Shown here in pieces: positions 24,033-51,722 of a DNA stretch of 64,000 nt. Position 1 is the first letter of the stretch; every line of letters starts with the position of its first letter. The stretch lies in assembly GCA_040388985.1 (NCBI GenBank), contig JAZKAU010000002.1, forward strand, positions 311,642 to 375,641. The letters run 5' to 3'. This DNA comes from Patescibacteria group bacterium (GTDB lineage Bacteria; Patescibacteriota; Minisyncoccia; Phycocordibacterales; Phycocordibacteraceae). The notes beneath the pieces are model-generated. The model was not told the origin of the DNA. It was given only the letters and a program-made list of their open reading frames with translations, and ran no database searches. A program made the position numbers and the translations under genes.

Positions 24033-24098
24033 ATCGCGCTCGAGACGCGTCGATATGAGAATCACCAAAATGGTATAATTGGTGGAGTCAACTTTAAT

Positions 24099-25516: not shown

Positions 25517-25557
25517 AACGCACATGCGCGTGCTTTTATTCGTTTGTTTGAAATCGT

Positions 25558-25758
25558 ATGCAGAAAAAGTTTATTGTTGCGTTGATAGCAACTTTATTAG
25601 TCGTAGGCTTTATAGGGTATCTCTACATAGGAAGGTCTGCTCCGACAGAAGATGGTGAATCAGTAGCAGTACCTGTAAATGAAACTTTATTTCAGCAACC
25701 TATAGTTTCACCTACGAACGCAGAGCCAGATGACTCACAACATCCATCCAATCTCTAA
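25558..25758 (+). CDS. small secreted/membrane-anchored hypothetical protein
   Basis: 66-aa ORF with N-terminal TM helix. Confidence 0.3.
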   Translation: MQKKFIVALIATLLVVGFIGYLYIGRSAPTEDGESVAVPVNETLFQQPIVSPTNAEPDDSQHPSNL

Positions 25759-25782
25759 ATTACCAACCTATACTTTAATCGT

Positions 25783-26340: not shown

Positions 26341-26364
26341 ATAGATTGATATACTAAAATTACT

Positions 26365-27003: not shown

Positions 27004-27006
27004 AAT

Positions 27007-28908: not shown

Positions 28909-29067
28909 GCGGTTACTTAAGCCATACTTTAGTCCACACTTCTTCATAAAAGCATCATTGACCACGATTTTACCCTCGTTATACTAGTAGGACTGGTTAG
29001 ATACGGATGTACTCAAGAAAGCCTATTACAGGCTTTTTGTATTATGAAGAAACGCTGAATTTCCTTT

Positions 29068-30165: not shown

Positions 30166-30204
30166 GCGAGATTCTCTTGTCTTCCATAGCAGGATAGTAG
30201 TTTC

Positions 30205-30657
30205 CTAGAGCCTCTTGAGAATGCTACTCATCTGATCAATCTCCAGTTGCTGGCTCGCAATGATGTTCTGACAAAGCTGCTTTATCTCTGGATCAGTGAT
30301 TTTCGCTTGCTCACACATCAGTATGGCTCCTGAGTGGTGAGGAATCATAGATTGAAGGAATCCCTTGTCTCCCACAAAAGTCTGATATCGAATCGCAAGA
30401 AATGAAAGTACGAGAACAACGAACCCGATACCAATTATGATCTTGTTCAATTTCTTGTCTTTGTACATCATGCCCATGAGGAGCATCTCAAGAATGAGCA
30501 TAGGCGCAGTCATCATGATTCCCATATAGAGGAAATTGATATTTGGAACCGCGTTCGCAAATACATTTACCATTGCAAACATGAGGACGAACATGGCGAC
30601 TACATGGAGTCCGACCATAAGAGCTAGTTTGCTATAGGAGGCATCTTTCATATTCAT
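30205..30657 (-). CDS. DUF305 family membrane protein (metal-resistance associated)
   Basis: MIPHHSGAILMCEQA matches DUF305 HHxGA-x-M motif; N-terminal TM helices. Confidence 0.6.
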   Translation of the reverse strand: MNMKDASYSKLALMVGLHVVAMFVLMFAMVNVFANAVPNINFLYMGIMMTAPMLILEMLLMGMMYKDKKLNKIIIGIGFVVLVLSFLAIRYQTFVGDKGFLQSMIPHHSGAILMCEQAKITDPEIKQLCQNIIASQQLEIDQMSSILKRL

Positions 30658-30738
30658 AGAAATATTAGCTTATGCGAACTGATAATACGTATAGATATTG
30701 TACCTTTTATCCCTTCTTAATAGGTATAGAATAGAGGT

Positions 30739-31107
30739 ATGACTGCGCAGATAAAGAAACTCCTATCGTGGTCAGCGCTGGCTTTGATAGTAGTGGTTCC
30801 TCTCCTGATGCTTTTCACCATGGCGATGCCCATGGATCATAGTACGGGTGGCTGTCCCTTTATGAAGGGTGAGACTTCAATCTGCCCGATGTCGGTTTTG
30901 GATCACATAACGAGCTGGCAGAGCACATTTACCATTACTCTCGTCGAGATACTCACGTTTGCCCTGCCAATCTTCGCGCTCGCATTGATTTGGCTCATTC
31001 TTCCAAAACCTGAACATCCACCGGGGTACCGAAGACGTTCCTATCCAGTACCGCCTTTACTACAAGAACTCTTCTCAAGCGGTCTCCTCAATCCGAGAGT
31101 TCCATAG
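30739..31107 (+). CDS. small membrane protein with conserved Cys pair (paralog of 25154..25516)
   Basis: see paralog alignment; C-terminal QELFSSGLLNPRVP vs QQLFSQGILNSKAY. Confidence 0.45.
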   Translation: MTAQIKKLLSWSALALIVVVPLLMLFTMAMPMDHSTGGCPFMKGETSICPMSVLDHITSWQSTFTITLVEILTFALPIFALALIWLILPKPEHPPGYRRRSYPVPPLLQELFSSGLLNPRVP

Positions 31108-31146
31108 AAACCCTTTAGTTATCTTTATTTCACTTAACTAAACTCT

Positions 31147-31548
31147 ATGGAAAAGAATGTAATTATTATAGGACTCGTTGCTCTTATTATTGGCGCTGGA
31201 GGGGGTTATGCACTTGCTATGAACAAGGCCCCGGAACCTACAGCAACTACCGGAGGTCATATGATGTCTAACGGTCAGATGATGGGAGGCTCTATGTCAG
31301 GGAATAGTATGCAGGGTGAGATGGACTCGATGATGGCTGGGCTTCAAGGAAAGACTGGAGACGCGTTCGACCAGGCCTTTTTGAGCGAGATGATCATGCA
31401 CCACCAAGGAGCCGTACAAATGGCTGAAGCAGCCCTTCAGAACGCAAAGCATCAGGAGATAAAGGATCTTGCAAAGAACATCATCTCTGCACAGAACACC
31501 GAGATCAAAGAGATGCAAGACTGGCAAAAGTCTTGGTACGGGAACTAA
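31147..31548 (+). CDS. DUF305 family protein with Met-rich (Cu-binding-like) region
   Basis: MIMHHQGAVQMA DUF305 motif; MMSNGQMMGGSMSGNSMQGEMDSMM Met-rich stretch; signal anchor. Confidence 0.65.
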   Translation: MEKNVIIIGLVALIIGAGGGYALAMNKAPEPTATTGGHMMSNGQMMGGSMSGNSMQGEMDSMMAGLQGKTGDAFDQAFLSEMIMHHQGAVQMAEAALQNAKHQEIKDLAKNIISAQNTEIKEMQDWQKSWYGN

Positions 31549-32322
31549 GTGGAGACTGTATGCGTTATGAACCAGACTACTAAACGAACAGCGATCCTCT
31601 ACCGAATGGTGCTACCAGACCATACCTGTCCGTATGGCCTGAAGGCTCGATGGCTTCTAAGGAAGCGCGGGTATGAAATCGATGATCAAATACTTCACAC
31701 CCGTCATGAAGTGGATGCGTTCAAAGCAGAATACTCTGTAGAATCGACACCTCAAATCTTCATTAACGACAAAAGAATTCGTGGGTATGATGACTTGCGT
31801 AAATCGTTAGGCATGAAGGTGCGCGATCCTAAGGGTACGACGTATACGCCCGTTGTTGTAGTGTTTGTTACCACAGCTCTCATGGCTTTGGCAGTGAGCT
31901 ACGCAACATACGGAGACCTGCTTACACTGCAAACGGTTCAGTGGTTCATCGCGCTCTCAATGATGGTACTCGGCATGCTCAAGCTCCAAGACATTGAAAG
32001 CTTCTCCAGTATGTTCCTGAACTATGATCTGCTTGCTCGTCGCTGGGTTCGGTATGGATATATATACCCATATGCAGAACTTGGAGCGGGAGCACTCATG
32101 GTGGCAGGCGCATTGTCTTGGCTATCAATTCCAGTTGCCCTGCTCATTGGAATCATTGGTGCAGTATCTGTATTCAAGGCCGTCTACATCGACAAGCGAG
32201 AACTCAAATGTGCCTGTGTCGGTGGAAACAGTAATGTTCCGCTCGGCTTCCTATCTCTCACTGAGAATCTCATGATGATAGCGATGGCTCTATGGATGCT
32301 GATAATGATTGGAATGCATTAG
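31549..32322 (+). CDS. glutaredoxin-like domain fused to multi-TM (MauE/DoxX-like) membrane domain
   Basis: CPYG active-site motif in N-terminal ~80 aa; 4-5 C-terminal TM helices with Cys pair CACVGG; start could be internal ATG (MNQTTKR). Confidence 0.55.
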   Translation: METVCVMNQTTKRTAILYRMVLPDHTCPYGLKARWLLRKRGYEIDDQILHTRHEVDAFKAEYSVESTPQIFINDKRIRGYDDLRKSLGMKVRDPKGTTYTPVVVVFVTTALMALAVSYATYGDLLTLQTVQWFIALSMMVLGMLKLQDIESFSSMFLNYDLLARRWVRYGYIYPYAELGAGALMVAGALSWLSIPVALLIGIIGAVSVFKAVYIDKRELKCACVGGNSNVPLGFLSLTENLMMIAMALWMLIMIGMH

Positions 32323-32339
32323 TGTTCTACAAATCAAAA

Positions 32340-32373
32340 TATGCAAAAGGCCGCTATATAGCGGCCTTTTGCA
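32340..32373. terminator. bidirectional terminator hairpin (AAAAGGCCGCTATATAGCGGCCTTTT)
   Basis: perfect stem between convergent genes; possible boundary between metal module and satellite-like module. Confidence 0.6.
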
Positions 32374-32384
32374 TTAGGATGCTA

Positions 32385-33707
32385 CTAATTAATCGCCAGA
32401 GTAATTTTCTTGTCATTAATAAGAAGTTTACCCTTTAAACATCCAAGTAATTCCCGCTTTTCTATGTCCGCTCCTTCTCTTAAGAGGTATTTAGCGTAAT
32501 TTCGTATATCTACATCTACTATCTCAATTTTGGTCTTTGTGCCTAGAATAGCTTGCTGGAACTTCTTAAACCTCTCAACCTCAGCTTTTATCTTTTCCTT
32601 AATACCAATCTCGTCGATATCAATGGTATCCATAAGAGCGATGAATTGTTCTATAAGATCCGTCTCATTTATATAGCCTGATTTACAATTCACATCTTTG
32701 CCTTTGCCGCAGCCGTAATAGACGTGGCGGTGAACATTTCCGTTCTTTTGCTTCTTAAATTTCTCGTCAGCCGAGATACTTGAACCGCATAGGCCACACT
32801 CCATAAGACGAGTGAAGGCAAATTCTTTAGTCTCGGAACGGATCACTTGGCTCTTTACTTGTTCCTGAACGAGGTCAAACAGCTCTTTAGAAATAAGGGG
32901 TTCGTGCTTTCCTTGATACCAACGGCCTGAATTCTTCGGGTATTCAAATACTCCGTAGTAGAAGGGATTTTGGAGAAGAATATAAATATTACTCAAACTC
33001 AGGTTCTTGTTCCCGGCGGCTGTCTTAAAATTAAGCTCGAATTTGAGCCAGTTATATACCTTACGTCCGCTCCATTTTTCATATGCTACTTTCTCGAACA
33101 TCTTCCTAATTACCATTGCTCTATCTGGGTCGAGAATGCTCTGACACTTCCTATCCAGTCGCTGTTCTTTCAGATAGCCGGTAGGGGCACGTCCCGGCAG
33201 TAGTCCCATTTCTACTCTCGTCTTTAAACCTCTCTTTACATTAATACTCTTGTTGTCGTTCTCGAGCTTTGCTTGAGAACACAGAATCATCAGGAGGAAC
33301 TTCTCGTTAGGGGAGTTCCTGAAGTGTTGTCCGTAAGTACGAATTTCAAGGAGTAGCTTCTGATCCATCAGATCTACGAGTGTTCCTAAGTCTCCAGCAT
33401 TTCTACTCAAACGGTCAGGTGCCCAAGTTAGTACGGCGTTAAAGCGTCCGCGTCGTATATCTTCGAGTAGTTCTTGATATACAGGTCGTTGTCCTGAATC
33501 CTTTGCTGAATGCGACTCTCTCCGAATATCTACTATCTCTAGATTCTCCCGCTCAGCGATTTGAAGCATTTCCTTAATCTGCGAATCTATGGAAAGAGCT
33601 TGCTTCTCATCGGACTCGGTAGATTTTCGGGCGTATAAGCAGTATCTAATTTTCTCTTCTATAATGACGGGTGATAATCCTATCTGTGAGGTTTCTAAAG
33701 TTTGCAT
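32385..33707 (-). CDS. large serine recombinase (resolvase/invertase N-domain + recombinase domain + zinc ribbon)
   Basis: YARKSTESDEKQ catalytic Ser region, DRLSRN, recombinase domain, CGLCGSS...YYGCGKG zinc ribbon, C-terminal coiled coil. Confidence 0.85.
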   Translation of the reverse strand: MQTLETSQIGLSPVIIEEKIRYCLYARKSTESDEKQALSIDSQIKEMLQIAERENLEIVDIRRESHSAKDSGQRPVYQELLEDIRRGRFNAVLTWAPDRLSRNAGDLGTLVDLMDQKLLLEIRTYGQHFRNSPNEKFLLMILCSQAKLENDNKSINVKRGLKTRVEMGLLPGRAPTGYLKEQRLDRKCQSILDPDRAMVIRKMFEKVAYEKWSGRKVYNWLKFELNFKTAAGNKNLSLSNIYILLQNPFYYGVFEYPKNSGRWYQGKHEPLISKELFDLVQEQVKSQVIRSETKEFAFTRLMECGLCGSSISADEKFKKQKNGNVHRHVYYGCGKGKDVNCKSGYINETDLIEQFIALMDTIDIDEIGIKEKIKAEVERFKKFQQAILGTKTKIEIVDVDIRNYAKYLLREGADIEKRELLGCLKGKLLINDKKITLAIN

Positions 33708-33711
33708 ATAG

Positions 33712-34014
33712 TTATTTCAATTTACTTAATGCTTCGGCACGAAGTCTTCCCATATCTCGGAGTACACCTAAATATACTTTCCGGCTCCTGTCCGTACCTT
33801 GGTGCGTATTGAGCCAGTCGATCAACTCGTCTGGTACGTATGTAGCAAGAGAGCTATAGGAAACTATCAACTCTTCAATCCTTTCAAGGATTGCTCGCTT
33901 TAAATCCTTCTTGGAGTGGGGAAGCAGAGAGATTCTATTCAGATAGGCACTGTCGGCTTCTTTCTTAAAACGATAATGATCTGCGGTATCCAATATTTCG
34001 TCCCTGTCCTCCAC
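33712..34014 (-). CDS. small hypothetical protein (possible RDF/regulator)
   Basis: 100-aa ORF immediately upstream of recombinase on same strand. Confidence 0.3.
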   Translation of the reverse strand: MEDRDEILDTADHYRFKKEADSAYLNRISLLPHSKKDLKRAILERIEELIVSYSSLATYVPDELIDWLNTHQGTDRSRKVYLGVLRDMGRLRAEALSKLK

Positions 34015-34326
34015 CTATTAATTGATGCCAGACTGGTGGCTGGTGCATAGTCTATGCAGAACTAGTCTTTCGTCGCATGGTCGCGAAGGCCTTAGCAAAG
34101 GGTAGGAACTGCGATAATATGAAGAAGTAGTACAGGGCTATGTATTACCTCAATATGGCCTAAACCGAGCAATTGCCCGGCATGGCCGAATAACCGCGAC
34201 CAGCATAGAAAACCCGTCATCAGGGCGCTGGTCGCGTTACCAGGGGAAACTCTGGTATGTCCTTCGGGACTCCTGGTGGCGGGTTTTGTGCTACCCACCA
34301 GAATTACAAATCGCGACCAGCAACAT

Positions 34327-34806
34327 ATGAATGACTCAACCGAGAGTGAGAAATCTGCTCTACAAAAACCTATTAGCGAGCTATGGAAAACCAGTCCTGT
34401 AACTCGAGTTACCACTGTTGTAGTGGTGCTTATACTGATCCTTATAGTTTGGGGTTCTGGAACACCAGCTCCAACATATCAATATCAGTATGTTCCAGAT
34501 ACGAGTTCTCAGCCTGCTGTAAGTACAACGGGAACGTATCAAGAAGTGCTTACGTTCTCTGGCAATGGACCTAAGCGGTCAGAGCCATTTACCATTATAG
34601 GTAGCCGATTCAAGATTACTTATGATTGTAAGGCTATGTATTGCGGCGCGTTCGTATTCAACACAAGCGATCAGATGCCAAGAGCGCTTATGAATAGCCC
34701 TGAGGCAGTAAGCGATGAAACTGTGTTCTACGGTAGCGGCCAATACTACATTGATACCAATATAGTGAATGGAAGTTATACGATGACGGTATACGACTAT
34801 AAATAG
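34327..34806 (+). CDS. membrane-anchored extracellular hypothetical protein
   Basis: single TM (VTTVVVVLILILIVW) then Thr/Tyr-rich beta region; start trimmed to MNDSTESEK. Confidence 0.4.
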   Translation: MNDSTESEKSALQKPISELWKTSPVTRVTTVVVVLILILIVWGSGTPAPTYQYQYVPDTSSQPAVSTTGTYQEVLTFSGNGPKRSEPFTIIGSRFKITYDCKAMYCGAFVFNTSDQMPRALMNSPEAVSDETVFYGSGQYYIDTNIVNGSYTMTVYDYK

Positions 34807-34818
34807 TCTCCAGTTAAT

Positions 34819-36270
34819 TTAAAAGAATCGGGGCACAGCTGGAGGATTGTTGACTGTGTGTAGTACAAGCATCGAAAAGGCATCGGCTAGGTCATCATGC
34901 TTTTCGACACCGAAGTGTACCAGCTGTTGAATTAGCTGTTCCGCGCCTTCTCTTGGGAAAAGGATTGTGCCATTCTTAATTAGATTTGCGGTTAACATGA
35001 GTCGACTGCGCTTGTCTGACCCTGGGTGAATAGTCTCTACTTGCCAAATACCTTCGGTAATAAGCTGCTCGGCCATAGCCCTCTGATACCCAACATCTTC
35101 GATAAGAAATGTGGCTTGTTGTCTATCCTCGTCCATATATGTCTGGTGAAGGATCTTGCAGGTATTTACTGTTTCGGGAAAATCCATTCTCCTGTTTACG
35201 ATCTTAGGCAGGATATATATGCAGTAGTCATTCTCTCGTTCATACAATAGCGCAGGAACCATGGCGGTGTAGTCCGCCGTATCCCTCTTGGATATCGCAA
35301 GATCTACTCCAATATGGAGCTCTGTATGCGTTGTGTAATATTCGTCCAACTGTGTTGATGGAGGAATCGTATCGTAGTACTGAATCCAGGCGCGATCGAT
35401 AACTTGATCTTCGGCAGGAACGATATTTAAGAGATATTCTCTCTGCCAAGCATATTCGTTAGAAGCTTTACGGCGTTCCTCCTCAACATCCTCCATGGTT
35501 GGATATTTGCCTGGCCATAGCACCTGACTTCTGTCGATAAGTGGATAAGACTTAAAAACACCCACCATGCTCTCTGTTTCCACATCTTCTTTAAGTCTCA
35601 TCATGAGTGAATCCTCGTGAAGGAGGTTTCCGATAATGATCATGCGCGTAGTACGGTCTCCGGTCGGTATAACTTCACCCGTTAGCCATTCATAGGTCTT
35701 ATTACGTCCCTCGCGTGTTTTCGTCGAAGCGATATCTTCAAGGTCGTCTCCAATAATAAGATCTGGTCTGTGTTGGTTGTGACGCAAGCCTCGGATGCTT
35801 TGTTCGGAAGAGACGGTTGTGATACGGGCATTGGTTTCAGCAAATACGAGTGAGGAAGCTCCCCATTCGTTATGCTCTTCTTGAAACGGACCAAGATCGT
35901 TCTTAAGGAGTATATTTCCCTCAAGCTCGCGTCGTAGGTTCATCATATGTTGCTTTGCTTGCGCCTGGGTCTGCGCGAGTATTAGCACGAACTTCTTCTG
36001 TGGCTGTCCAAGGATTGCCCAAAGCGGATATGACATAGTGAAGATCGTAGACTTTGCCGACCCACGAAATGCGACTATGAAGAGGTTTCTGATGTTTTCT
36101 TGTTCAGACAGATGAATCAGTTCTCGTTGGAAGGGAGCGGTAGGGTACTTTACATAGTGTGCGAAGTAGAAGTGGAAGAACATGAAGTGGCTTTGCCGAG
36201 TGATTGCTGAGCGAACATTACGGTCACTAAACATTTTCTCGGCAAGTTCTGGTGGCAGATGCTCATTCAT
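34819..36270 (-). CDS. phage terminase large subunit
   Basis: Walker A-like VAFRGSAKST, Walker B LIIGDDLED, C-terminal RNaseH-like nuclease acidic residues; size 483 aa. Confidence 0.8.
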   Translation of the reverse strand: MNEHLPPELAEKMFSDRNVRSAITRQSHFMFFHFYFAHYVKYPTAPFQRELIHLSEQENIRNLFIVAFRGSAKSTIFTMSYPLWAILGQPQKKFVLILAQTQAQAKQHMMNLRRELEGNILLKNDLGPFQEEHNEWGASSLVFAETNARITTVSSEQSIRGLRHNQHRPDLIIGDDLEDIASTKTREGRNKTYEWLTGEVIPTGDRTTRMIIIGNLLHEDSLMMRLKEDVETESMVGVFKSYPLIDRSQVLWPGKYPTMEDVEEERRKASNEYAWQREYLLNIVPAEDQVIDRAWIQYYDTIPPSTQLDEYYTTHTELHIGVDLAISKRDTADYTAMVPALLYERENDYCIYILPKIVNRRMDFPETVNTCKILHQTYMDEDRQQATFLIEDVGYQRAMAEQLITEGIWQVETIHPGSDKRSRLMLTANLIKNGTILFPREGAEQLIQQLVHFGVEKHDDLADAFSMLVLHTVNNPPAVPRFF

Positions 36271-36682
36271 CTTGGTCTTGGATAGGGCTCTCTAAGTTTG
36301 CTGGTTCAGGAAGAGAGAAGGAGGCAAGTCGAAGTGCTTCGCGTACCACTTCTTCTTGTTCAGGAGTAAGTTCTTCCTTTGGTTTCGTAGTCGTCACCTC
36401 CAGACGATCGCGATACTTGGGACTGCGCTTACGGAGCCAGAAGGATATGGCGTTCCAGTTCTTGTCGCGGATCATACTAATGAGCTGGCTTTCGCTCATG
36501 TCGTTGATCAGTTCCTCGCCTTCGCCTAACGCTATGTCCATCGATTTACGGAACTCAGGATCTTCGTTTTTCCAGCGATAGACGCTATTGCGCGATACTC
36601 CAACTTTTTCGCAGGCGACCTGGACGATAGGGACTTTCCGGAGATGATCCAGGAACGCGTCTTTGACCTTATTCTTTTTCAT
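36263..36682 (-). CDS. terminase small subunit-like HTH protein
   Basis: N-terminal HTH (VQVACEKVGVSRNSVYRWKNED), located directly upstream of terminase large subunit. Confidence 0.5.
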   Translation of the reverse strand: MKKNKVKDAFLDHLRKVPIVQVACEKVGVSRNSVYRWKNEDPEFRKSMDIALGEGEELINDMSESQLISMIRDKNWNAISFWLRKRSPKYRDRLEVTTTKPKEELTPEQEEVVREALRLASFSLPEPANLESPIQDQDE

Positions 36683-37958
36683 GCGCGTTTCCGGTTACTT
36701 TTGCTTTGTTTCCCGTAAGCTTTTCGTACCGCTTAATAGCGAGATCGCAGAAGGCAGGCTCAAGTTCTACGGCGTAGACGCGGCGCTTCAACTGCTCGGC
36801 GGCAATCATCGTACTTCCTGAGCCAGAGAAGCTATCGAGAATAATCTCGCCTGGCTTCGTACAGCGACGAATAGCCTTCTCATGAAGCTTAGGGGGCTTC
36901 GAGGTTGCGTGTTCATAATCTTTCCCAGAGAGTCGCTTTACGAGCCACACATCGAGATGATCGAGCGTCTCCTCAATGAGGTTGTTTCCAGTCGTAATCT
37001 CCTTATTGAGTACTTCGTTCAGGTTCTGAATGCTCTTGGCTATATACGGTTTACCTCGCAGTCCATAAACGCAGGGTTCGTAGCATTTATTGAACGCGAC
37101 AGACGGCACCGGATTCTGCGAGTTCTTGAGCCATAGACACACACGCTTATTCGCTATACCGAGTTCGCGGTACAGCTCCTGCATGAGACCGATATAGATC
37201 TGATCGCACCAGTAGAAGACATGCGTATCCGGCTTCGCTACCGAAAGGGCAGCGATCATCGTCTTTGTTATGAATTCCTTATACTCGCTGTCAGTGCGAG
37301 TATCGAGGACGTTTCCTCCATAGTTCTGCTTGCCCCCAATCCCCCCGTTGTAGTCGATATTGATGTTGTATGGTGGATCGCTATAGATCATTGACGCGCG
37401 TTCCTCTCCGAAGAGGTGACCGAGTACCCTTGGGTCAGTTGAACTCCCGCAAATAAGACGATGGCCACCAAGCTGAATGAGGTCTCCAATCTTAGTTTTT
37501 GGCTCCTTGATCTGCTTCAGCTCCTTCTCTTCGTCGAATTCGTCATTCTCTGTCTCCAAGTTCTCCGTCCAGACATTCGAGAGGTCGATGTCGCTAAAGC
37601 CAACATCAGACAGGAAGTCCATCTCGAAGAACTTCAATTTCTCGAAGTCCCATTCTCCGGTGTTGCGGTTAAGGCGAAGGTTCAGTTCCTGTTCCTTCCT
37701 CAGGCTTGGAATCTGGACGTACACGACTGGTACAGTCTTGTGTCCCAATTCCTTAGCGGCACGAAGGCGCATGTGACCACCAATAACGATGTTCTTGCGC
37801 TTCGGTGCACCATTCACGATTACAGGATCTACCAGCTCGAAGCGAGAGATACTCTCTTTAAGCTGGGTAAGCGCCTCCTTGGAGATCTTGCGAGGGTTGT
37901 ACTCGGCAGGCTTTAAGTCTCCGACCGGTACGTACACAATATTTAGTTCTTTGTTCAT
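36669..37958 (-). CDS. ParB-like nuclease domain fused to DNA N6-adenine/N4-cytosine methyltransferase
   Basis: ParB N-domain (IGGHMRLRAAKELG), MTase motif IV DPPY (IYSDPPYNI) and motif I (LDSFSGSGST). Confidence 0.85.
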   Translation of the reverse strand: MNKELNIVYVPVGDLKPAEYNPRKISKEALTQLKESISRFELVDPVIVNGAPKRKNIVIGGHMRLRAAKELGHKTVPVVYVQIPSLRKEQELNLRLNRNTGEWDFEKLKFFEMDFLSDVGFSDIDLSNVWTENLETENDEFDEEKELKQIKEPKTKIGDLIQLGGHRLICGSSTDPRVLGHLFGEERASMIYSDPPYNINIDYNGGIGGKQNYGGNVLDTRTDSEYKEFITKTMIAALSVAKPDTHVFYWCDQIYIGLMQELYRELGIANKRVCLWLKNSQNPVPSVAFNKCYEPCVYGLRGKPYIAKSIQNLNEVLNKEITTGNNLIEETLDHLDVWLVKRLSGKDYEHATSKPPKLHEKAIRRCTKPGEIILDSFSGSGSTMIAAEQLKRRVYAVELEPAFCDLAIKRYEKLTGNKAKVTGNAHEKE

Positions 37959-38124
37959 ATTCCTTTGAAACAGTTATGTTCAATAAGGATGTATGGAAAT
38001 AGAAAAGGCCTATTCCACACACGAAAAGAGAAGAGGTTCAATGCCTCAACTCATTTCTTGCGCGGAATAGGCATGGCCGGGAGGCGATACGCTACTCTAC
38101 TTTTTACTACGCTATATCACTATT

Positions 38125-38532
38125 CTATTCCTCTCGCTTTTTCTTCGCAAGGCCTCGAAGCACTCGCTTACCATTTTTACTGTTCAGGAACTCCACAGTA
38201 TCCTTTCCCGGTCCCACTGGAACGCCTGCACGGTCAAAAGAGAGAAGGACTTTATATCCTTTAGACTCTTGATCCCGTACATAATTCACAAAATCTGGAT
38301 CCTCCTTAAGACGATTGATTGCGTACGCGCGTGAATCCATTAGTGCGAGCAAGTCAATTGGCCCGTAAATGCGACCTGGTTGCCCTGCATCAACTGCTTT
38401 TCGTATTTTATTTCCGACTGAAGGAGTGGCAGTCTTTGCCGCAGTATGGAACGCTCCGTCAGTGATATGAATCGTGACATATTTCCGTCCCTTTTTAAGG
38501 ACGGCGGGATTTAGATCAAGCCGATATTCCAT
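38125..38532 (-). CDS. hypothetical protein (135 aa after start trimming), divergent from CD-NTase gene
   Basis: ORF 38125..38742 trimmed to internal ATG (MEYRLDLNPAV...) to avoid overlap with + strand gene; no motif recognised. Confidence 0.35.
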   Translation of the reverse strand: MEYRLDLNPAVLKKGRKYVTIHITDGAFHTAAKTATPSVGNKIRKAVDAGQPGRIYGPIDLLALMDSRAYAINRLKEDPDFVNYVRDQESKGYKVLLSFDRAGVPVGPGKDTVEFLNSKNGKRVLRGLAKKKREE

Positions 38533-38595
38533 ACCAGTATTATACTCTTCTCCTATTTGCTCGCTATATAACCTGGGCTGTAATAAAATAGCGTT

Positions 38596-39489
38596 ATGTC
38601 TTGGGAAGATACTTTTATTACCTGGTCCGCACCACCCAGCCTCACTGAACGTGAGAAGATGGAAAATGCTGAAACGGCAATACGTAAAGCCGTTGCCGCA
38701 AACACTCGTTTGAGTCAAATGGATGTGTCCATCATCCCGCAAGGTTCTTATCGTTCAAAGACAAATGTAAGATTGGACAGTGACGTCGATATTGCAGTAT
38801 GTCTAAATTCGACGTTCTTCACGCAATATCCTGCTGGTAAAGTACACGAAGATTTTGGAAATAGTAGCTCGGAAGAAATTACTTTTCCTGAATTTCGCGG
38901 TCTAGTACAAGTCGCCCTAGATGACTATTTTGGCTCTGCACAAGTAACGCCAGGAAATAAGGCCTTTGATATCCATTCAAATAATTATCGAGTTGATGCT
39001 GATGTGGTAGCTACATTCGCACATCGCCATTACTTCGAGAACGGTCTATTTATAGAACCAGCAGGAGTAGCATTTCTTACGCGCGACACTTCAAAAAGAA
39101 TTGAGAATTGGCCACATCAAGCCTACGAAAACGGAAAAGATAAACATGATAGAACAGGTCGTCGGCACCGGAAAATGGTTCGCATCCTAAAACGTCTTCG
39201 CAATAAGATGCAGGCAGAAGGTTATGAAGAAGCAAACGACATCTCCTCGTATCTCATTGAAAGCATGGTCTGGAATGCCGCCGACCAGTCTTTTAATCAC
39301 ACAACTTATACTGAAGATGTTCGAGCTGTATTAGCATACTGCTTCAATGAGACCCTGCCTGCGGGAAGCCACGGATCTCTTGTTGAATCGAATGATATTA
39401 AGTACCTCTTCCATGTAACTCAGCCGTGGACGCGCGAACAGGCTCACAAATTCTTTTCTGCCGCATGGAATTATTTAGGCTTCCAATAA
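38596..39489 (+). CDS. cGAS/DncV-like nucleotidyltransferase (CD-NTase, SMODS-type minimal NTase)
   Basis: Pol-beta NTase motif QGSYRSKTNVRLDSDVDIAV (GS...DxD) and downstream DADV; N-terminus WSAPPSLTEREKMENAE resembles clade-E CD-NTases. Confidence 0.75.
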   Translation: MSWEDTFITWSAPPSLTEREKMENAETAIRKAVAANTRLSQMDVSIIPQGSYRSKTNVRLDSDVDIAVCLNSTFFTQYPAGKVHEDFGNSSSEEITFPEFRGLVQVALDDYFGSAQVTPGNKAFDIHSNNYRVDADVVATFAHRHYFENGLFIEPAGVAFLTRDTSKRIENWPHQAYENGKDKHDRTGRRHRKMVRILKRLRNKMQAEGYEEANDISSYLIESMVWNAADQSFNHTTYTEDVRAVLAYCFNETLPAGSHGSLVESNDIKYLFHVTQPWTREQAHKFFSAAWNYLGFQ

Positions 39490-39491
39490 GT

Positions 39492-40118
39492 ATGGAAAAG
39501 GTAAACGGGAAGGTACAGATGTATGTTCAAATAATTACTTTTCTTTTTGTTTGGATTCTCGTACTTATATTTACGCAACCAAACCAGACTTGGGATTTAA
39601 TAAATGCACTCAAAGAAGTACCAACGGCCATATCTATATATGCTGTCCTAAGTCTTTTATTTGTTAAATGGCTTTGGCGTATTCCAATCCTTCATCCGTG
39701 GTTAGTGAAAATACCTAATCTTAACGGTACATGGCGAGGTGTTTTAAAAAGCGATTGGGTCAATCCTGTAACAGGAAAGAATATTGAGCCAATACCTGTT
39801 CTTCTTACGATTAAGCAAGATTTCTCTAATCTACATTGCGTATTGATGACAAAGGAGTCAACAAGTTACAGTGTTGTCGCAGATATTAATTTTGGACTTG
39901 GGGGAGATACGTCCTGTCTTAGCTACACTTATACAAATCGATCCAAAGCATCAATCCGAGATAGAAGTCCAATACATGACGGCGCCGCAATTCTTAAGAT
40001 TATTAAGAATCCACAGATTTCCTTAGAGGGAGAATACTGGACAAGCAGAAAAACGAAAGGAGATATCAATGTCATTCTAGAATCAAGAAAGATAGTAGAA
40101 AGTTACATAGAAGTGTAA
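39492..40118 (+). CDS. 2-TM membrane effector with C-terminal beta-rich domain (Cap15-like CBASS effector candidate)
   Basis: two TM helices (VQIITFLFVWILVLIF; AISIYAVLSLLFVKWLW) then ~140-aa beta-rich domain; ATG 3 nt after CD-NTase stop. Confidence 0.5.
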   Translation: MEKVNGKVQMYVQIITFLFVWILVLIFTQPNQTWDLINALKEVPTAISIYAVLSLLFVKWLWRIPILHPWLVKIPNLNGTWRGVLKSDWVNPVTGKNIEPIPVLLTIKQDFSNLHCVLMTKESTSYSVVADINFGLGGDTSCLSYTYTNRSKASIRDRSPIHDGAAILKIIKNPQISLEGEYWTSRKTKGDINVILESRKIVESYIEV

Positions 40119-40150
40119 CTTTCTACGTGACACTCAAAACCTCATTCCTG

Positions 40151-40266
40151 TGTCACTTTTGTCACTTTCCTAGGTGCACGAGACGCGTCGTTTTGGATTC
40201 TGAAAACTCACCAAACGGACTAAGCAGGGCTTGGTTCTAGACGGTTCGAACTCGAGACGGCCAGCA
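40151..40266 (+). repeat. ~115-nt structured repeat, copy B (tandem GTCACTTT half-sites, GACGCGTC palindrome, GAGACGGCCAGCA end)
   Basis: ~85% identical to 41839-41954; partial motif also at 24041-24052. Confidence 0.7.
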
Positions 40267-40421
40267 ACGTATGGAAGCCGCCCGGGAGGGCGGTTTTCAC
40301 GTTGCTGCGGGAAGCGAGTGTGGGGCACTCGCGTCTAGGACTCGAAGCTGTTACGAGTATTTCTCAGGAGTCCTCCGAACTGAGAAATCCGCAACGGATA
40401 CTGCTCCGTAGGAGAGAGGCC

Positions 40422-40448
40422 AGTCCCGCAGCCAACTCGTGCTAGGTT
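40422..40448 (+). repeat. right copy of 27-bp direct repeat (att-like)
   Basis: identical to 24006-24032. Confidence 0.8.
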
Positions 40449-40508
40449 CGGACGCACGAGATGCGTAGTCTCGACTTAAGACACACAACTTTACTGTCGT
40501 GGACGTAC

Positions 40509-40775
40509 TTAGCTTATCCCGGCGTCCTCACGCCACCTCTTAAGAGCAAACTGATAATAATCAGGTATCCACTTTCTGTTACAGGTATCGAACAGCTCCC
40601 AGAAAAAATCTTGCGATTCTTTAGTGTGTGGATTTTCTAAATAGCCTCGAAGTTCCTCATCCTTAACTGCTGATAGAGCCTCTTTAGAGGCGGTGCGCAC
40701 AAGTCCATATATCATAGTGAGAGGCCGTGTGTCAGTTGTGAAGTCGTTCCCATCTCTAGAATTAGTAAAGTTCAT
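40509..40775 (-). CDS. hypothetical protein
   Basis: 88-aa ORF overlapping start of downstream gene by 4 nt. Confidence 0.4.
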   Translation of the reverse strand: MNFTNSRDGNDFTTDTRPLTMIYGLVRTASKEALSAVKDEELRGYLENPHTKESQDFFWELFDTCNRKWIPDYYQFALKRWREDAGIS

Positions 40776-41080
40776 GCCTCCGGCATATACGTTGAATACC
40801 CATGATGAAGTCGGCTAATAACTGTTTTGTATCCACCTTCTTTACCGTTAAGCCACTTAGAAACGCGCGCTACCGTGGTCGAGCTTAACCCGGTCTGCTT
40901 TTCAATAACTGCGTAGGAAATATTTTGGGTGAGCATTTGAGCTGCCTGAAGCCTCTTTCCGAATTCCGCGATCTCCTTTTCTGTCATAAGGTCACGCAGA
41001 AAGCGACGAGCTTCATTCTCGCTTTTAAGTGACAGTATTGCTTCCAGTAGCGTCCTGGCCTCCTTGCTGTTCCAGTTCAT
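40772..41080 (-). CDS. TrpR/YerC-like DNA-binding protein
   Basis: LTEKEIAEFGKRLQAAQMLTQNISYAVIEKQTGLSSTTVARVSKWLN matches Trp-repressor-like YerC/YecD family HTH. Confidence 0.6.
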   Translation of the reverse strand: MNWNSKEARTLLEAILSLKSENEARRFLRDLMTEKEIAEFGKRLQAAQMLTQNISYAVIEKQTGLSSTTVARVSKWLNGKEGGYKTVISRLHHGYSTYMPEA

Positions 41081-41276
41081 ATAACTACTTTATCAGAGTG
41101 CAGTACTTTAGTCAAGTAAAGTCATATTAGTGAGATTTCTTTGTTATTCAAAAGTATCTTACTTCTCAAACATCCAACTCTCGGTATTAAATAGAGAACC
41201 GCCACCCAAGAAAGGCAGGCTGGTGACAGTCCTCTATCCTTTCCTAAGATGGCGGTCAATCAGCGAAGACGCTTGT

Positions 41277-41750
41277 CTAGACCTGTTCTTTCGAAGCGCG
41301 CATCGCGTTCCGCAACTGGTGAGCAACCTCGATGATCGTCCTGCCCTTCGGCGGCTTGAGGATAGTGACGCTGTCGTCGCCGTTGCGGCGAACCACGTAT
41401 TTCACCTTTCTGCCGTCGATATGTTCGCGATCGTTCCAGAGGATCCGATTGAGCATGTACTCATCCGGATCGTGTTGCCCCGGACCTTCGAGATGTTTGA
41501 CGTCAATCCAGTCCTGAGTCCGATCGATGACAAGGTAGAGACCATACGGAGCAGGCTCCTCGAGCTCGTTTTCGAGCTCCTTTACCTTGATGACATCTCC
41601 CGGCCGGTAGTGGCTGAAAATTGCCCACAGCCAAGGGAAATCCTCGTACATCCGCTGAGTCGCGTGGCGATCACCAAACAACATATTAGCCTTCGCTTTC
41701 TGAGGCATTCCGCCTCTTTGAGTCCATTCCGGACGCTGAAACACCGACAC
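41277..41750 (-). CDS. hypothetical protein
   Basis: protein-like composition; preferred over overlapping + strand ORF 41130..41885 which is low-complexity. Confidence 0.45.
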   Translation of the reverse strand: MSVFQRPEWTQRGGMPQKAKANMLFGDRHATQRMYEDFPWLWAIFSHYRPGDVIKVKELENELEEPAPYGLYLVIDRTQDWIDVKHLEGPGQHDPDEYMLNRILWNDREHIDGRKVKYVVRRNGDDSVTILKPPKGRTIIEVAHQLRNAMRASKEQV

Positions 41751-41838
41751 AAGAGTCGGTACTTATGGAATACTACTAAAGTTATAATACGTCAAGTTTT
41801 AGCCTTGCTATGGCTCCAACATCCTTCCACGCAAGGAC

Positions 41839-41954
41839 TGTCACTTTTGTCACTTTTTGAAGCGCACGAGACGCGTCGTTTTTGACTCTGAAAATTCACC
41901 AAACGGACTAAGCGGGGCTTAGCCGACTACGGTTCTAACACGAGACGGCCAGCA
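41839..41954 (+). repeat. ~115-nt structured repeat, copy C
   Basis: aligned to 40151-40266; lacks the following tRNA-3' repeat. Confidence 0.7.
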
Positions 41955-42145
41955 CTCTAGGATTTTGAGAGTATATTTCTTCAATATCTGTTGCGTTTCC
42001 TTATTGGTTTCTAGCTCTAATCTTGCAGAAAGTGTGCGAGCTTCTTCCGCGACATTTTCAATGGGTATGAGGAGGTTATCTAGTGAAATATTCGGTTTTT
42101 ATGGAATGAGTTTATGATTCTAACCTAATATGGAAGTCTCAGATA

Positions 42146-42724
42146 TTAAGTAAACGAAATCTGTTCCTCAAATGGTTTTGTTCCGTCAATTACAATGTCA
42201 GCGTGCGCTTTAGGGTTGTCGCGCCGTATATACGTTTCTTCCTCCTCAAACCAGTCTTCCCACATTGCAGAAAGTTCGTCCTGCGTTTTACCAGTGCCGC
42301 TGTCTCTCGCAAGGCCACGACGTAAACATATCTCTTTTGGAGTATCCACGAATATGCTCAAGCTGATGTAGTCCCTGAACTCCTCACGTGATGAGCTCAC
42401 TCCTTCAAGTACCATTATCGGGGAAACAGGTTGGTCTACCACTGGATCAGGGTAGTGGTTCTCCCACCATTTTGACCGAGGATAGTTGAGCGTTCTCGCT
42501 CCATTCTTGATGGGAGTAAATACTCGCTCTATAACCAATGACCACCAATCCAAAGGGTTATCCCAGCTTGCGAAATCGTCAGTTTGGATTAGCTCGGCAT
42601 CGAGCTTCTCCGCAAGCCATTTCGCTAGAGTAGATTTACCAGAACCGCCGTGTCCATCCACAGCGATAAAGAGCGTTTGTCCCACCTTGGGCTTCTTGGT
42701 AGCTATCAGCTCTCGTAGGTTCAT
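42146..42724 (-). CDS. P-loop nucleoside/nucleotide kinase (uridine-kinase-like)
   Basis: IAVDGHGGSGKSTLAKWL Walker A; 192 aa. Confidence 0.6.
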   Translation of the reverse strand: MNLRELIATKKPKVGQTLFIAVDGHGGSGKSTLAKWLAEKLDAELIQTDDFASWDNPLDWWSLVIERVFTPIKNGARTLNYPRSKWWENHYPDPVVDQPVSPIMVLEGVSSSREEFRDYISLSIFVDTPKEICLRRGLARDSGTGKTQDELSAMWEDWFEEEETYIRRDNPKAHADIVIDGTKPFEEQISFT

Positions 42725-44516: not shown

Positions 44517-45401
44517 ATGACACTAAGCCATGTATTAGGTGGCATTTGCTTCCGCTCGTCAGATAGCGAGGTATCGTTCTGTGCTATGCAGATGCATGAT
44601 GCAACTCTCGATATAGAAGGCATAAAGAGAATCGATCGCTTTAACCAGCAGGTCTGTTCAGAAGGCTGGAGAATGGCCGTTGATCAGAATGCTGATGCTG
44701 TGCCTTCCCGGCTGGGTCTGAAGTATCTGTATGCTGGGAAAGACGTACTTTTAGCGATGTGTCTCAACAACGGATACTACCATCGCGAGAATATCTATAG
44801 GATGCTGCGATTCGCTCTGACTTTTTCGAACCGAATGCAGATATTCACGACCGATGGTCCGGCAAAGCACAACTACGAGGCACTCGGTAAAGTGAAAAGC
44901 AAGATTCCCGCGATAACGCGACTTGCTCGGAACCGGCTCCGCAATCAATGCATGGATGCTCTCGGGCGTATCAATGCTGAGCTCCCTCAAGATGAACAGC
45001 GCAGCATCACATTCATGGAGTGGGAGCATATCTATGCCGACCAGGCGTACGTTGACTCGTATAAGTACCTTAAGGACTTATATTCTATGAGCACTGAATT
45101 CCGTACCGATATAAACGATACTTCTGAGCAGGTGCTCCTGAATCGTATTGGCATTGAGAAGGAGGTCAAGGCAGTGCTCTCGATAGGAATTGAATACGTT
45201 ATAGAGGAACTTGCCTTCATACTTGCGTATAGGTCACTGGGGCCTGCGAGTAAGCCAATACGCGATCATGGTCATGAGGGATTCAGCTATCTCTATTACG
45301 AACCCTGGCCTGTATTCGAGAAGCTCATACGTGGCGAGTACGACGGGATGGCAAAGGAGGGGATAGGGTTTGTCGTGGCTAAGATCGAGGAGATAGGCTG
45401 A
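44517..45401 (+). CDS. hypothetical protein divergent from putative regulator
   Basis: 294-aa ORF, no motif recognised; followed by 17-bp-stem hairpin. Confidence 0.4.
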   Translation: MTLSHVLGGICFRSSDSEVSFCAMQMHDATLDIEGIKRIDRFNQQVCSEGWRMAVDQNADAVPSRLGLKYLYAGKDVLLAMCLNNGYYHRENIYRMLRFALTFSNRMQIFTTDGPAKHNYEALGKVKSKIPAITRLARNRLRNQCMDALGRINAELPQDEQRSITFMEWEHIYADQAYVDSYKYLKDLYSMSTEFRTDINDTSEQVLLNRIGIEKEVKAVLSIGIEYVIEELAFILAYRSLGPASKPIRDHGHEGFSYLYYEPWPVFEKLIRGEYDGMAKEGIGFVVAKIEEIG

Positions 45402-51646: not shown

Positions 51647-51722
51647 GATGCGGTCGCCGAGGTGGTTCAGGTGCTTGCCCGCAAGGTAAGAGACGCAGGT
51701 TCAAGTCCTGCCCGCATCTCCA
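51647..51722 (+). tRNA. tRNA-Cys (GCA) (tentative), CCA encoded
   Basis: acceptor GATGCGG/CCGCATC, anticodon stem CTTGC/GTAAG loop CCGCAAG, T-arm GCAGGTTCAAGTCCTGC, TCCA end; D-arm atypical. Confidence 0.55.

Follow-up and report, generated by a model that had tools for sequence, protein, structure and literature searches.

Repeats at the ends of tandem units beside a Patescibacteria tRNA-Gln gene are probable far-end attachment modules of an island family

A 116-nt direct repeat in the window (the whole 64,000-nt stretch of DNA analyzed here) is best explained as the far-end attachment module (the P arm, which integration places at attR) of an island family of Patescibacteria that would insert at the extreme 3' end of tRNA-Gln. 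Judging from sequence comparisons within the window and among related loci, we give this reading a probability of about 0.7. The two copies of the repeat, B and C, would belong to two family elements in tandem, referred to here as unit 1 and unit 2. The features on which the argument rests are as follows.

23945-24018, plus strand: tRNA-Gln(CUG), the proposed integration target (ARAGORN; Rfam tRNA; junction comparisons)
24016-24098, plus strand: putative near-end (P') arm of unit 1 (sequence; partial model match at 24036-24069)
32385-33707, minus strand: large serine recombinase, LSR (Pfam Resolvase, Recombinase and Zn_ribbon_recom; PHROG integrase, 2e-62)
34819-36270, minus strand: TerL (PHROGs phrog_38, 3.8e-80)
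36263-36682, minus strand: TerS-like HTH protein (PHROGs phrog_4044, 7.7e-13)
40095-40168, plus strand: cluster of TGT(A/C)AC(TTT) sites, with an inverted pair at 40095-40126, GTGACAC at 40127-40133 and tandem TGTCACTTT at 40151-40159 and 40160-40168
40174-40266, plus strand: core of copy B, putative far-end (P) arm of unit 1 (model R1; alignments; tRNA-Gln similarity; junction comparisons)
40263-40306, plus strand: D2, a long hairpin, AGCAACGT ... ACGTTGCT, with a terminator-like tip, GCCGCCC GGGA GGGCGG TTTT
40306-40434, plus strand: D3, a structured segment and candidate module (inverted repeat I12; fold z-scores)
40432-40481, plus strand: putative near-end (P') arm of unit 2 (45-nt direct repeat; weak partial model match at 40453-40481)
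40509-41750, minus strand: unit 2 cargo, comprising an 88-aa ORF, a TrpR/YerC-like HTH protein (40772-41080) and a 157-aa orphan ORF
41839-41954, plus strand: copy C, putative far-end arm of unit 2 (tandem TGTCACTTT at 41840-41857 and core at 41862-41954)

Structure of the repeat

The original prediction described a pair of ~115-nt repeats at 40151-40266 and 41839-41954, and both copies were recovered there with their component motifs and with 84% identity. Each consists of two tandem TGTCACTTT sites followed by a core of ~95 nt. With sequence model R1, the core of copy B scored 104 bits (E 1.5e-31) and that of copy C 95 bits (E 9e-29). Of the component motifs, GTCACTTTTGTCACTTT occurs exactly twice in the window against 0.12 expected and TCACCAAACGGACTAAGC twice against 0.02 expected, and CGAGACGCGTCG has three occurrences, at 24041, 40179 and 41867. 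A shorter version of the motif, proposed to lie just inside the left att repeat, was indeed found beside tRNA-Gln at 24036-24069, where positions 1-42 of a model derived from 18 homologues are matched (E 0.004). The match of a fourth, partial copy at 40453-40481, after the second att-like copy, is weak (E 0.31). The att-like sequences themselves form a 45-nt repeat (24006-24050 and 40422-40466) with 87% identity, the first 27 nt being identical.

Comparison across genomes indicated that the conserved unit is the core, and that the TGTCACTTT sites form a separate upstream block, which reaches back to 40095 through further direct and inverted copies of TGT(A/C)AC. In the core of copy B, a palindrome box on the 5' side (40176-40190) is followed by a hairpin-prone stretch of variable sequence, by CTCACCAAACGGA and by a 3' half that resembles tRNA-Gln and ends GG-TTCGAAC-TCGAG-ACGGCCA-G|CA. 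Copy C ends ...GGCCAG|CA and is followed by unrelated sequence. In a relative with 98% identity (L043; numbers of this form denote fetched loci), homology is lost at the 5' edge of core C, and a scaffold gap sits at the 5' edge of core B. A protein-coding role for the core was considered and rejected; copy C has a stop in the sole open plus-strand frame, and a 1-nt indel is found in L006 and L012.

The integration site and its junctions

At occupied sites (the window, L045, L056 and L057) the tRNA reads through CAG|CCA into the linker and box. At two empty sites (L060 and L061), which come from other species and share only the tRNA-side gene order with the window, the tRNA ends CAG|CA and is followed by unrelated sequence; the linker is absent there, the core is absent within 9 kb, and no leader of the unit 1 type is present. 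Far ends read from the core through CAG|CA into unrelated sequence, with the exception of L057, which has CAG|CCAAGTA. L013 has an attP-like junction, in which the core runs through CAG|CCA into the linker and box. The difference between the occupied sites and the empty ones, which are those of other species, falls exactly at the junction, and attL and attR each combine an attB half with an attP half. From the empty sites, the occupied sites and the one attP-like junction, we infer a crossover at CAG|C, within the last bases of tRNA-Gln, which in the window read ...GTCCCGCAG|CCA.

This position replaces the one first proposed, in which the 27/45-nt att repeat was the crossover duplication. The empty sites show that the linker is not native downstream of the tRNA, and a crossover inside the 27-nt repeat was dropped. 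The repeated CCAACTCGTGCTAGGTT and GC(A/T)CGAGA(C/T)GCGT are brought by each element, and the two copies therefore belong to two successive elements. That copy C lacks the tRNA repeat had been correctly seen, but under the corrected model it is the expected arrangement.

From about position 20 onward, tRNA-Gln(UUG) can be aligned as far as its 3' end with the 3' half of the core, which also has tRNA-like spacing (T-loop of 7, stem of 5, acceptor of 7, then G and C(C)A). The core of L057 scored 32-38 against tRNA-Gln(UUG), compared with 16 +/- 3 (maximum 30) for shuffled sequences; the similarity is clearly above shuffles only for this core and is marginal for the window's own copies. As an RNA gene in its own right, whether tRNA, tmRNA or SRP RNA, the core was rejected, ARAGORN giving no match and the core ends being unable to form the acceptor pairing. 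A same-strain empty site was sought by exact-protein look-ups for the TrpR-like and LAGLIDADG genes, which returned only the same arrangement. Breaks in Logan contigs at about 23196 and 32345 fall at palindromes, not at variation.

Organization of the two units

Unit 1 (24016-40266) carries metal-resistance genes, the LSR, LOOT RNA, TerL/TerS, a ParB-methylase and CBASS. Its end is ambiguous, at either 40264 or 40431, with 170 nt (D2-D3) lying between core B and the next CCA-linker. The near-end arm consists of CCA, a linker hairpin ACTCGTGC-TAGGTTATCGC-GCTCGAG (24019-24044), a palindrome box GCTCGAGACGCGTCG (24038-24052), a TCACCAAA remnant, an extended -10 sequence TGGTATAAT (24071-24079) and GGAG, after which comes the ATG of the first island gene at 24099. 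In L045, L057, L021, L006 and L013 this leader likewise comes after tRNA-Gln or a tRNA-like end, in agreement with the suggestion that the GACGCGTC box beside tRNA-Gln is part of the same system.

The LSR was the only recombinase among the island ORFs scanned and is for this reason the presumed integrase of the island; the best 120 clusters in the protein collection are at least 74% identical to it. No Phage_integrase domain, indicative of a tyrosine integrase, was found in the 29 ORFs scanned between 22.7 and 45.4 kb. TerL and TerS constitute a conserved island backbone, and the homologues of the TerL and TerS-like proteins in L016 have 72-77% identity. Another repeat, D4 (43 nt, 32404-32446 and 41135-41177), was considered as a pair of att sites for the LSR or as an LSR remnant; tblastn revealed no remnant, and D4 was treated as a chance occurrence.

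Unit 2 (40432-41954) contains three small genes. Its near-end arm is made up of CCA, the linker ACTCGTGCTAGGTT, CGGAC and GCACGAGATGCGTAG, with no recognizable promoter. The TrpR/YerC-like protein matches Pfam Trp_repressor (1.3e-20); the 157-aa ORF has no homologue except itself. A recombinase is absent from the unit and no LSR remnant was detected by tblastn. With a CCA, linker and palindrome leader of its own at one end and its own core at the other, unit 2 supports the proposal of a second, tandemly inserted element that now lacks a recombinase, and by analogy it resembles a cis-mobilizable remnant.

The hairpins reported between 40270 and 40420 are present, including the terminator-like GCCGCCC...GGGCGG followed by TTTT at 40277-40297, but they are better described as parts of a conserved 170-nt module than as incidental structures. 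The D2 helix recurs with a different sequence in L041 and L006, and a similar helix is found in L027. At its two ends D3 has copies of the tRNA-Gln 3' end, an inverted one on the left, TGCGGGA-(hairpin)-TCTAGGACTCGAA, and a direct one on the right, AGTCCCGCAG-CCA; in L041 the D3 arms correspond to the tRNA-like sequence of L041 itself. The 270 nt that run from the core through to the CCA fold much better than shuffled sequences in the window (z -4.6), L041 (z -6.4) and L006 (z -3.5). D3 is absent from L045, L056, L057, L060 and L061.

The core in other genomes

The core was found in ~25 other loci, nearly all of them with the label Paceibacterota or Saccharibacteria. Its strand is in every case that of the variable cargo genes, which it directly follows, 0-72 nt from the upstream gene in most loci. 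In all five LSR islands for which the fetched DNA extends past the defence cargo (the window, L045, L052, L055 and L057), the core is the end far from tRNA-Gln, and in all four islands reaching the other side (the window, L045, L056 and L057), tRNA-Gln is at the opposite end. The same LSR family is present in L045 and in L048-L058. A second LSR in L016/L045, only 29% identical, abuts the same core, so the core is not specific to one recombinase. Islands related to unit 1 carry the LSR, TerS/TerL and ParB-methylase.

The five full islands all have the tandem TGTCACTTT pair before the core, and most gene-sized units lack it. Small units, in which the same leader and the same core enclose unrelated cargo, occur in L004, L021, L028, L006 and L041, and arrays of at least two units in L041, L037, L040 and L006.

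Proposed mechanism and alternative explanations

In the circular form of such an element, the core would meet the linker hairpin (ACTCGTGC...GCACGAG) at ...GGCCAG|CCA, followed by the GACGCGTC box and a TGnTATAAT promoter, as in the junction of L013. Recombination with a chromosomal tRNA-Gln ending CAG|CA would split the element junction, placing the CCA, linker, box and promoter beside the intact tRNA, where they would drive the first island gene, and the core behind the cargo at the opposite end. The core's 3' half, which resembles a decayed tRNA-Gln, would then be the recombinase half-site matching the real tRNA end. The circular junction expected here is GAGACGGCCAG|CCAACTCGTGCTAGGTTATCGC or GGCCAGTCCCGCAG|CCAACTCGTGCTAGGTTATCGC, and the expected empty site is GTCCCGCAG|CAACGTATGGAAGCC; neither a circular junction nor an empty site of the same strain was seen. 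Serine integrases normally need an attP of only ~50 bp, a requirement that leaves the conserved 5' 40 nt of the core and the upstream sites unexplained. The tandem and inverted TGT(C/A)AC sites before the core accompany elements with the full backbone, and they probably bind an island protein. TerS, acting in packaging, or an excision factor would be our guess, the TerS-like protein and TerL being possible partners of the repeated TGTCAC sites. Where the original prediction offered recombinase or excisionase binding arms, or a conserved ncRNA, at element ends, the association with element ends and recombination stood in 5/5 islands and protein binding is predicted from the sites, but the ncRNA did not find support.

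An RNA function for the core (as an sRNA derived from a 3' UTR or standing alone, or as a tRNA-like RNA, co-transcribed with the upstream cargo and ended by the following hairpin) would account for its constant strand and its position shortly after the upstream gene, for the terminator-like hairpin that follows it in the window, L041, L052 and L028, and for the stability of the 270-nt fold; in L006, moreover, D3 is followed by an intrinsic terminator of its own. We nevertheless consider it unlikely. No Rfam family matched the repeat, either at the gathering threshold over the whole window or at E values up to 10 over 39900-42200, and the window copies alone fold no better than shuffled sequences on either strand (z -0.9 and +1.3). 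RNAalifold, applied to 24 cores, gave -3.5 kcal/mol with a covariation term near zero and no compensatory pair, and no covariation was found with 12 cores either; these tests cover the core, the D2-D3 sequences being too few. The sole recurrent hairpin, the P1 helix, is not above shuffled controls (151/500 and 173/500), and conservation resides in the primary sequence at the two ends of the core, the middle decaying in diverged copies. The shared orientation is equally well explained by transcription of the cargo from the leader promoter toward the far end.

That the islands encode TerL and TerS, with no capsid genes seen in the window or the fetched loci, invites the alternative that the TGTCAC sites and core are a pac or cos site, or the replication origin, of a phage-satellite-like island, read by TerS/TerL or an initiator and not used for recombination. 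Clusters of short direct and inverted repeats are typical of regions bound by TerS or initiators, and the distribution of the TGTCACTTT pair, constant in full islands and missing from most gene-sized units, agrees with such a role. However, the core without TGTCAC sites bounds small units that lack terminase (L004, L021, L028, L040 and L041), the junction comparisons put the recombination breakpoint exactly at the 3' end of the core, and neither an AT-rich unwinding region nor a DnaA-box-like feature was noted. We regard this explanation of the whole repeat as improbable; restricted to the TGTCAC block, it may hold, and it is compatible with an attachment module. It is far less probable still that the core is a dispersed repeat of the REP or MITE type, unrelated to element ends and present twice here by chance, even though it is short and non-coding, occurs in several CPR lineages at high identity and is sometimes found more than once per locus. 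A dispersed high-copy element was looked for across genomes and is contradicted by the low copy number and fixed context. Full copies number only two in the 64 kb, and no fetched locus has more than two. A search of 185,579 species genomes gave only ~12 true matches and the metagenome set 6, with none in a motif scan of viral contigs. All copies within a locus point in one direction and hold a fixed position relative to the tRNA-Gln arrays and cargo, and neither terminal inverted repeats nor target duplications were seen.

Beyond the far-end attachment module itself, a broader scheme can be put forward tentatively, which we think rather unlikely. In it, tRNA-Gln in Patescibacteria would be the anchor of an integron-like cassette platform, on which island LSRs capture, stack and exchange units in trans. 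Each unit would have a promoter-bearing leader (CCA, hairpin and GACGCGTC box) and a pseudo-tRNA-Gln 3' end; at least two types of unit end were found, the 95-nt core and GTTCCAACRTCGTMCCARAC..CAGCCA. D3 would be a mimic of the tRNA-Gln acceptor and T-stem, made from inverted and direct copies of the host tRNA end, and would provide an additional landing pad or function as a tRNA-like RNA.

Comparison with known systems

Tandem insertion next to a tRNA is an ordinary kind of feature, but this island family appears to be undescribed. Our literature search found no description of it, and the main text of the 2017 motif paper (PMC5737381) does not discuss LOOT.

SCC elements of staphylococci (SCCmec, pseudo-SCC and ACME, at the 3' end of rlmH/orfX) are likewise tandem units at one LSR target, some of them lacking a recombinase. 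Their LSRs insert at the 3' end of a conserved gene and leave it intact, each unit being bounded by a copy of the integration site. By analogy, units 1 and 2 of the window and the arrays of L041, L006 and L040 form an SCC-like composite array that works alike, although not at rlmH. Here the target is tRNA-Gln, one half of the conserved 95-nt far-end module is tRNA-like, the near-end arm has CCA, a hairpin and a promoter, the backbone comprises TerS/TerL, ParB-methylase and LOOT RNA, and the hosts are Patescibacteria. Accretion of ICEs and CIMEs in Streptococcus thermophilus (ICESt1/ICESt3) also gives tandem arrays by repeated site-specific integration at one site, and CIMEs, like unit 2, keep att sites after loss of their recombination genes; ICESt1 and ICESt3, however, have tyrosine integrases and conjugation modules and use the fda 3' end, in contrast to the serine integrase and terminase-type backbone found here.

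Islands and prophages that use tyrosine integrases at tRNA genes (P4-like and others) share the tRNA 3' target, the carriage of a tRNA-like segment and the presence of tRNA-derived sequence at both ends. In our islands, by contrast, no tyrosine integrase was found among the ORFs, the crossover would lie at CAG|C and not in the anticodon loop or T-loop, and the tRNA-like piece is left at the far end without restoring the tRNA. Integron cassettes with attC sites resemble the small units in being often of one gene, in having the same direction, in their recombination-site-like end and in their one chromosomal anchor. There is no IntI here, however; a tRNA gene is the anchor, conservation of the ends is in sequence and not in folded structure alone, and the units carry their own TGnTATAAT promoter leaders, whereas integron cassettes are promoterless. 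Serine-integrase prophages (phiC31, Bxb1 and A118) have the LSR domain set, the short crossover identity and the hybrid attL and attR in common with these islands, but their known attP sites are ~50 bp, as compared with P-side conservation over 95-170 bp and a P half that imitates the target tRNA.

Significance

Patescibacteria have no genetic tools and few characterized mobile elements, and the present analysis places the ends of a very common island family in this group, together with its likely crossover at CAG|C of tRNA-Gln. The islands carry defence systems of the phylum (CBASS, Thoeris-like TIR and Shedu-like) as well as metal-resistance genes, so that knowing where the islands begin and end shows at which places such cargo is exchanged. 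For the engineering of CPR bacteria, a serine integrase whose tRNA target is defined and conserved would be a candidate tool. For very small genomes, the stacking of gene-sized units suggests that genes may be acquired by a cassette-like route.

The repeat in the window and in other genomes

A repeat search and alignment of the window confirmed the two copies of about 115 nt in the original prediction as a direct repeat of 116 nt with 84% identity, at 40151-40266 (copy B) and 41839-41954 (copy C). The sub-motifs named there were all found, each one seldom expected by chance. Copy B starts about 30 nt past the stop codon of Cap15, a CBASS effector. The predicted att-like repeat beside tRNA-Gln(CUG) (23945-24018) likewise held up, as a 45-nt repeat at 24006-24050 and 40422-40466 in which the first 27 nt are identical. 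R1, a sequence-only model of 18 homologues, gave copy B a score of 104 bits (E 1.5e-31) and copy C one of 95 bits (E 9e-29). Partial 5' pieces were found right behind each att-like copy, at 24036-24069 (E 0.004) and, weakly, at 40453-40481 (E 0.31).

Further copies, which the original prediction had proposed to seek, were found in other genomes. Scanning a genome collection with the pattern CGAGACGCGTCG-N(5-30)-TCACCAAA identified roughly 12 true homologues, which come from MAGs of Paceibacterota and one MAG of Saccharibacteria, and a metagenome scan with a different anchor added six more; a motif scan of viral contigs gave no match. The conserved unit is a core of about 95 nt, from GC(A/T)CGAGACGCGTCG to CGAGACGGCCAGC(C)A, with a mean column identity of 86%. 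In nearly every locus a gene on the same strand ends 0-72 nt upstream of the core. These upstream genes are mutually unrelated (CBASS, reverse transcriptases, methyltransferases, a copper oxidase, unknowns), as are the downstream genes.

The alternative that the repeat is a conserved ncRNA found no support. The core had no match in Rfam, and the two window copies folded alone did no better than shuffles. The proposed covariance check, made with RNAalifold on 24 cores (-3.5 kcal/mol), revealed no pair kept through change on both sides. The sole recurrent hairpin of the core (GUUUUGG..CUGAAAAC) was paired in 77% of cells, against 76% in shuffles. In diverged copies both ends of the core are kept while the middle decays, which fits protein-recognised DNA better than a folded RNA. 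Thus, the core is not demonstrably an RNA.

The island and its backbone

The island between the att-like copies contains the following features, in order.

Before the LSR: cation-efflux protein, DsbB/DsbA, P-type ATPase, M23/LysM peptidase, DUF305 proteins, MauE
32385-33707, minus strand: large serine recombinase (LSR)
34157-34271, plus strand: LOOT RNA (Rfam RF03000; 69.5 bits, gathering score 46.4), with the LSR operon on one side and TerL on the other
34819-37958, minus strand: island backbone of TerL, TerS-like HTH protein and ParB-methyltransferase
38596-40118, plus strand: CBASS pair of cyclase and 2TM Cap15 effector, the final cargo before the core of copy B

The LSR is a member of a very large family with tight conservation, and the best 120 clusters are at least 74% identical to it. 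The contexts of seven proteins of this family share a backbone with, in order, variable defence cargo, a (ParB-)methylase, TerS, TerL, a 177-aa gene, a 100-aa gene, the LSR and a second cargo, often metal resistance. At the position of the CBASS pair, relatives carry a ThsB-TIR gene, SAVED/SMODS genes, a DUF4011 helicase or a reverse transcriptase, which marks this position as a defence hotspot. Related islands have a non-coding gap at the backbone position of the LOOT RNA, so LOOT seems to be a component of this LSR island family.

Domain scans found no tyrosine integrase in the window's island, and neither it nor the fetched relatives showed capsid, portal or tail genes. By its gene content the island looks like a phage-satellite-like element that would rely on a helper for particles. 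Binding of TerS to the TGTCAC block for packaging is a reasonable guess, given that TerS and TerL are encoded by these islands and capsid genes were not seen.

Several other features of the window were recorded. A perfect 40-nt palindrome (20 + 20, no spacer) lies at 23186-23225, between a DUF1761 gene and a LAGLIDADG-like gene, and coincides with a break in a public Logan contig of the same strain. A few kb after copy C, and surrounded by accessory-looking genes, is an ORF with a cyclodipeptide synthase domain (44517-45401, plus strand; Pfam CDPS, 2.5e-14). A tRNA-Cys is located at 51647-51722. A fragment at 61779-62063 (plus strand) resembles the recombinase domain of the island's LSR (29% identity over 118 aa), which suggests another integrated element or remnant downstream.

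Island ends and the probable crossover point

In the window and in the LSR islands among the loci fetched from other genomes and metagenomes (L numbers), the core is present, with tandem TGTCACTTT sites before it, wherever the DNA extends past the defence cargo (window, L045, L052, L055, L057), and tRNA-Gln is present wherever it reaches the opposite side (window, L045, L056, L057). Empty sites were sought by using the peptidase gene adjoining tRNA-Gln in L056 and L057 to fetch other species with the same gene order. In two of these, L060 and L061, unrelated sequence directly follows tRNA-Gln; there is no core within 9 kb and no linker or palindrome box after the tRNA.

Junction types, with the sequence to the left and right of the junction
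Empty site (L060, L061): left, tRNA...CAG; right, CA + native sequence (in L060 a terminator-like hairpin)
Occupied, tRNA side (window, L045, L057; variants L056, L004): left, tRNA...CAG; right, CCA-ACTCGTGCTAGG(G/T)T-5 nt-GC(A/T)CGAGACGCGT
attP-like (L013): left, core...GGCCAG; right, the same CCA-linker-box, then metal-resistance genes resembling the window's
Far end (window copy C, L045, L052, L055, L004): left, core...GGCCAG; right, CA + unrelated sequence

Compared in this way, the four types present the pattern expected of attB, attL, attP and attR with exchange at CAG|C. We place moderate confidence in this exact crossover point, and also in the LSR as the presumed catalyst. The pattern assigns the linker hairpin, the GACGCGTC box and the TGnTATAAT promoter, found 8-20 nt ahead of the first ATG, to the element's near end. 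It also implies that the window's repeated 27 nt are not a crossover duplication; that candidate was rejected, the stretch combining 13 tRNA-like nt with the leader of the element that follows.

CCA is not encoded in the empty-site tRNA-Gln genes (L060 7123-7194, L061 11640-11711; ...CAG-CA...), and at every occupied site an encoded CCA is supplied by the island (24016-24018 in the window); integration thus alters the 3' end and trailer of the tRNA gene. A second LSR (L016 6649-7998, minus strand, the same gene as L045 1-1084), only 29% identical to that of the window, abuts the core and has a reading frame that extends into the 3' half of the core, which suggests insertion of another type of island at the same CAG|C point.

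The core ends in GG-TTCGAA(C/T)-(T/C)CGAG-(A/T)CGGCCA-G-C(C)A, spaced as T-loop, T-stem, acceptor strand, discriminator G and CCA are in a tRNA. In a local alignment with tRNA-Gln(UUG), the match continues back to roughly position 20 of the tRNA; scores are 32-38 for the L057 core, compared with 16 +/- 3 (maximum 30) for shuffled tRNAs, and marginal for the window copies. From this likeness we infer that the 3' half of the core is an element-side half-site resembling the chromosomal target. Because partial R1 matches show the core's 5' part (box, variable stretch, TCACCAAA) to be similar to the near-end leader, the core may, speculatively, have arisen as a collapsed unit of leader plus tRNA relic.

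Proposed tandem stacking

Our main reading, held with high confidence, is that the repeats are modules of element ends and became duplicated through tandem insertion. By the junction rule, the window would read tRNA-Gln, unit 1 (leader 24016-24098 to core B, 40174-40266), D2-D3 (40263-40434), unit 2 and unrelated sequence, with unit 2 consisting of a leader (40432-40481), three genes, TGTCAC sites and core C (41862-41954). Copy C is preceded, on the far side of the right att-like copy, by three short ORFs on the minus strand, one of which is TrpR/YerC-like. Although unit 2 contains TGTCAC sites, as full islands typically do, it lacks a recombinase and backbone; its best interpretation is a truncated island that the array has retained. 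The predicted insertion of a second, truncated element is thus supported by a leader and a core of its own. In L043, a 98%-identical relative, homology ends at the 5' edge of core C and a scaffold gap lies at the 5' edge of core B, which marks this edge of the core as a place of sequence exchange. The putative 157-aa ORF of unit 2 (41277-41750, minus strand) matched solely its own record in a collection of 5.8 billion proteins, and one assembly calls an overlapping plus-strand ORF instead.

Similar arrays were found elsewhere. L041 has a tRNA end followed by leader-ORF-core, D2-D3 and leader-ORF-degenerate core, and L006 has four units in succession, each closed by a tRNA-3'-like ...CAGCCA or a D3. 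L004, L021 and L028 have one gene each between leader and core. A second type of pseudo-tRNA end is present in L040 and L052. This family, GTTC(C/T)AAC(G/A)TCGT(C/A)CCA(G/A)AC..CAGCCA (L040 7968-7992 and 8982-9006; L052 524-548; L006 1678-1706), closes other gene-sized units in the same arrays and is followed by a promoter-like TATACT/TATAAT and ATG.

Within D2-D3, D2 forms a long hairpin whose tip resembles a terminator. D2-D3 recurs after cores in L041 and L006, with a related copy in L027, and the whole stretch folds well below shuffles; D3 was absent from the other islands and empty sites compared. The left end of D3 is a reverse complement of the 3' end of tRNA-Gln, broken up by a hairpin, and its right end is AGTCCCGCAG-CCA; in L041 its arms match the tRNA-like sequence of that locus. 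Under the junction rule, core B|CAACGT has the appearance of a far end next to a native tRNA terminator, and the D3 end|CCA-linker that of a tRNA-side junction serving unit 2. The D3 of L006 is unoccupied and has a terminator of its own. From these observations, D3 could act as a secondary landing site resembling a tRNA, or be a tRNA-like RNA. We have low confidence in any role for the 5' part of the core, for the TGTCAC sites or for D3.

Comparison with known systems

The closest resemblances are to SCC arrays at rlmH, which share serine recombinases and units without a recombinase, and to ICE/CIME accretion, which shares site-specific integration with tandem accretion. Unlike both, the present system targets the last bases of tRNA-Gln; it also differs by a far-end arm that mimics the tRNA and a near-end arm with a promoter, by its terminase/LOOT backbone and by the phylum of its host. 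The tRNA-Gln island family was not described in the literature searched. The kind of feature is known, and the island family and its end architecture appear to be new. The function of the system is site-specific integration and tandem accretion.
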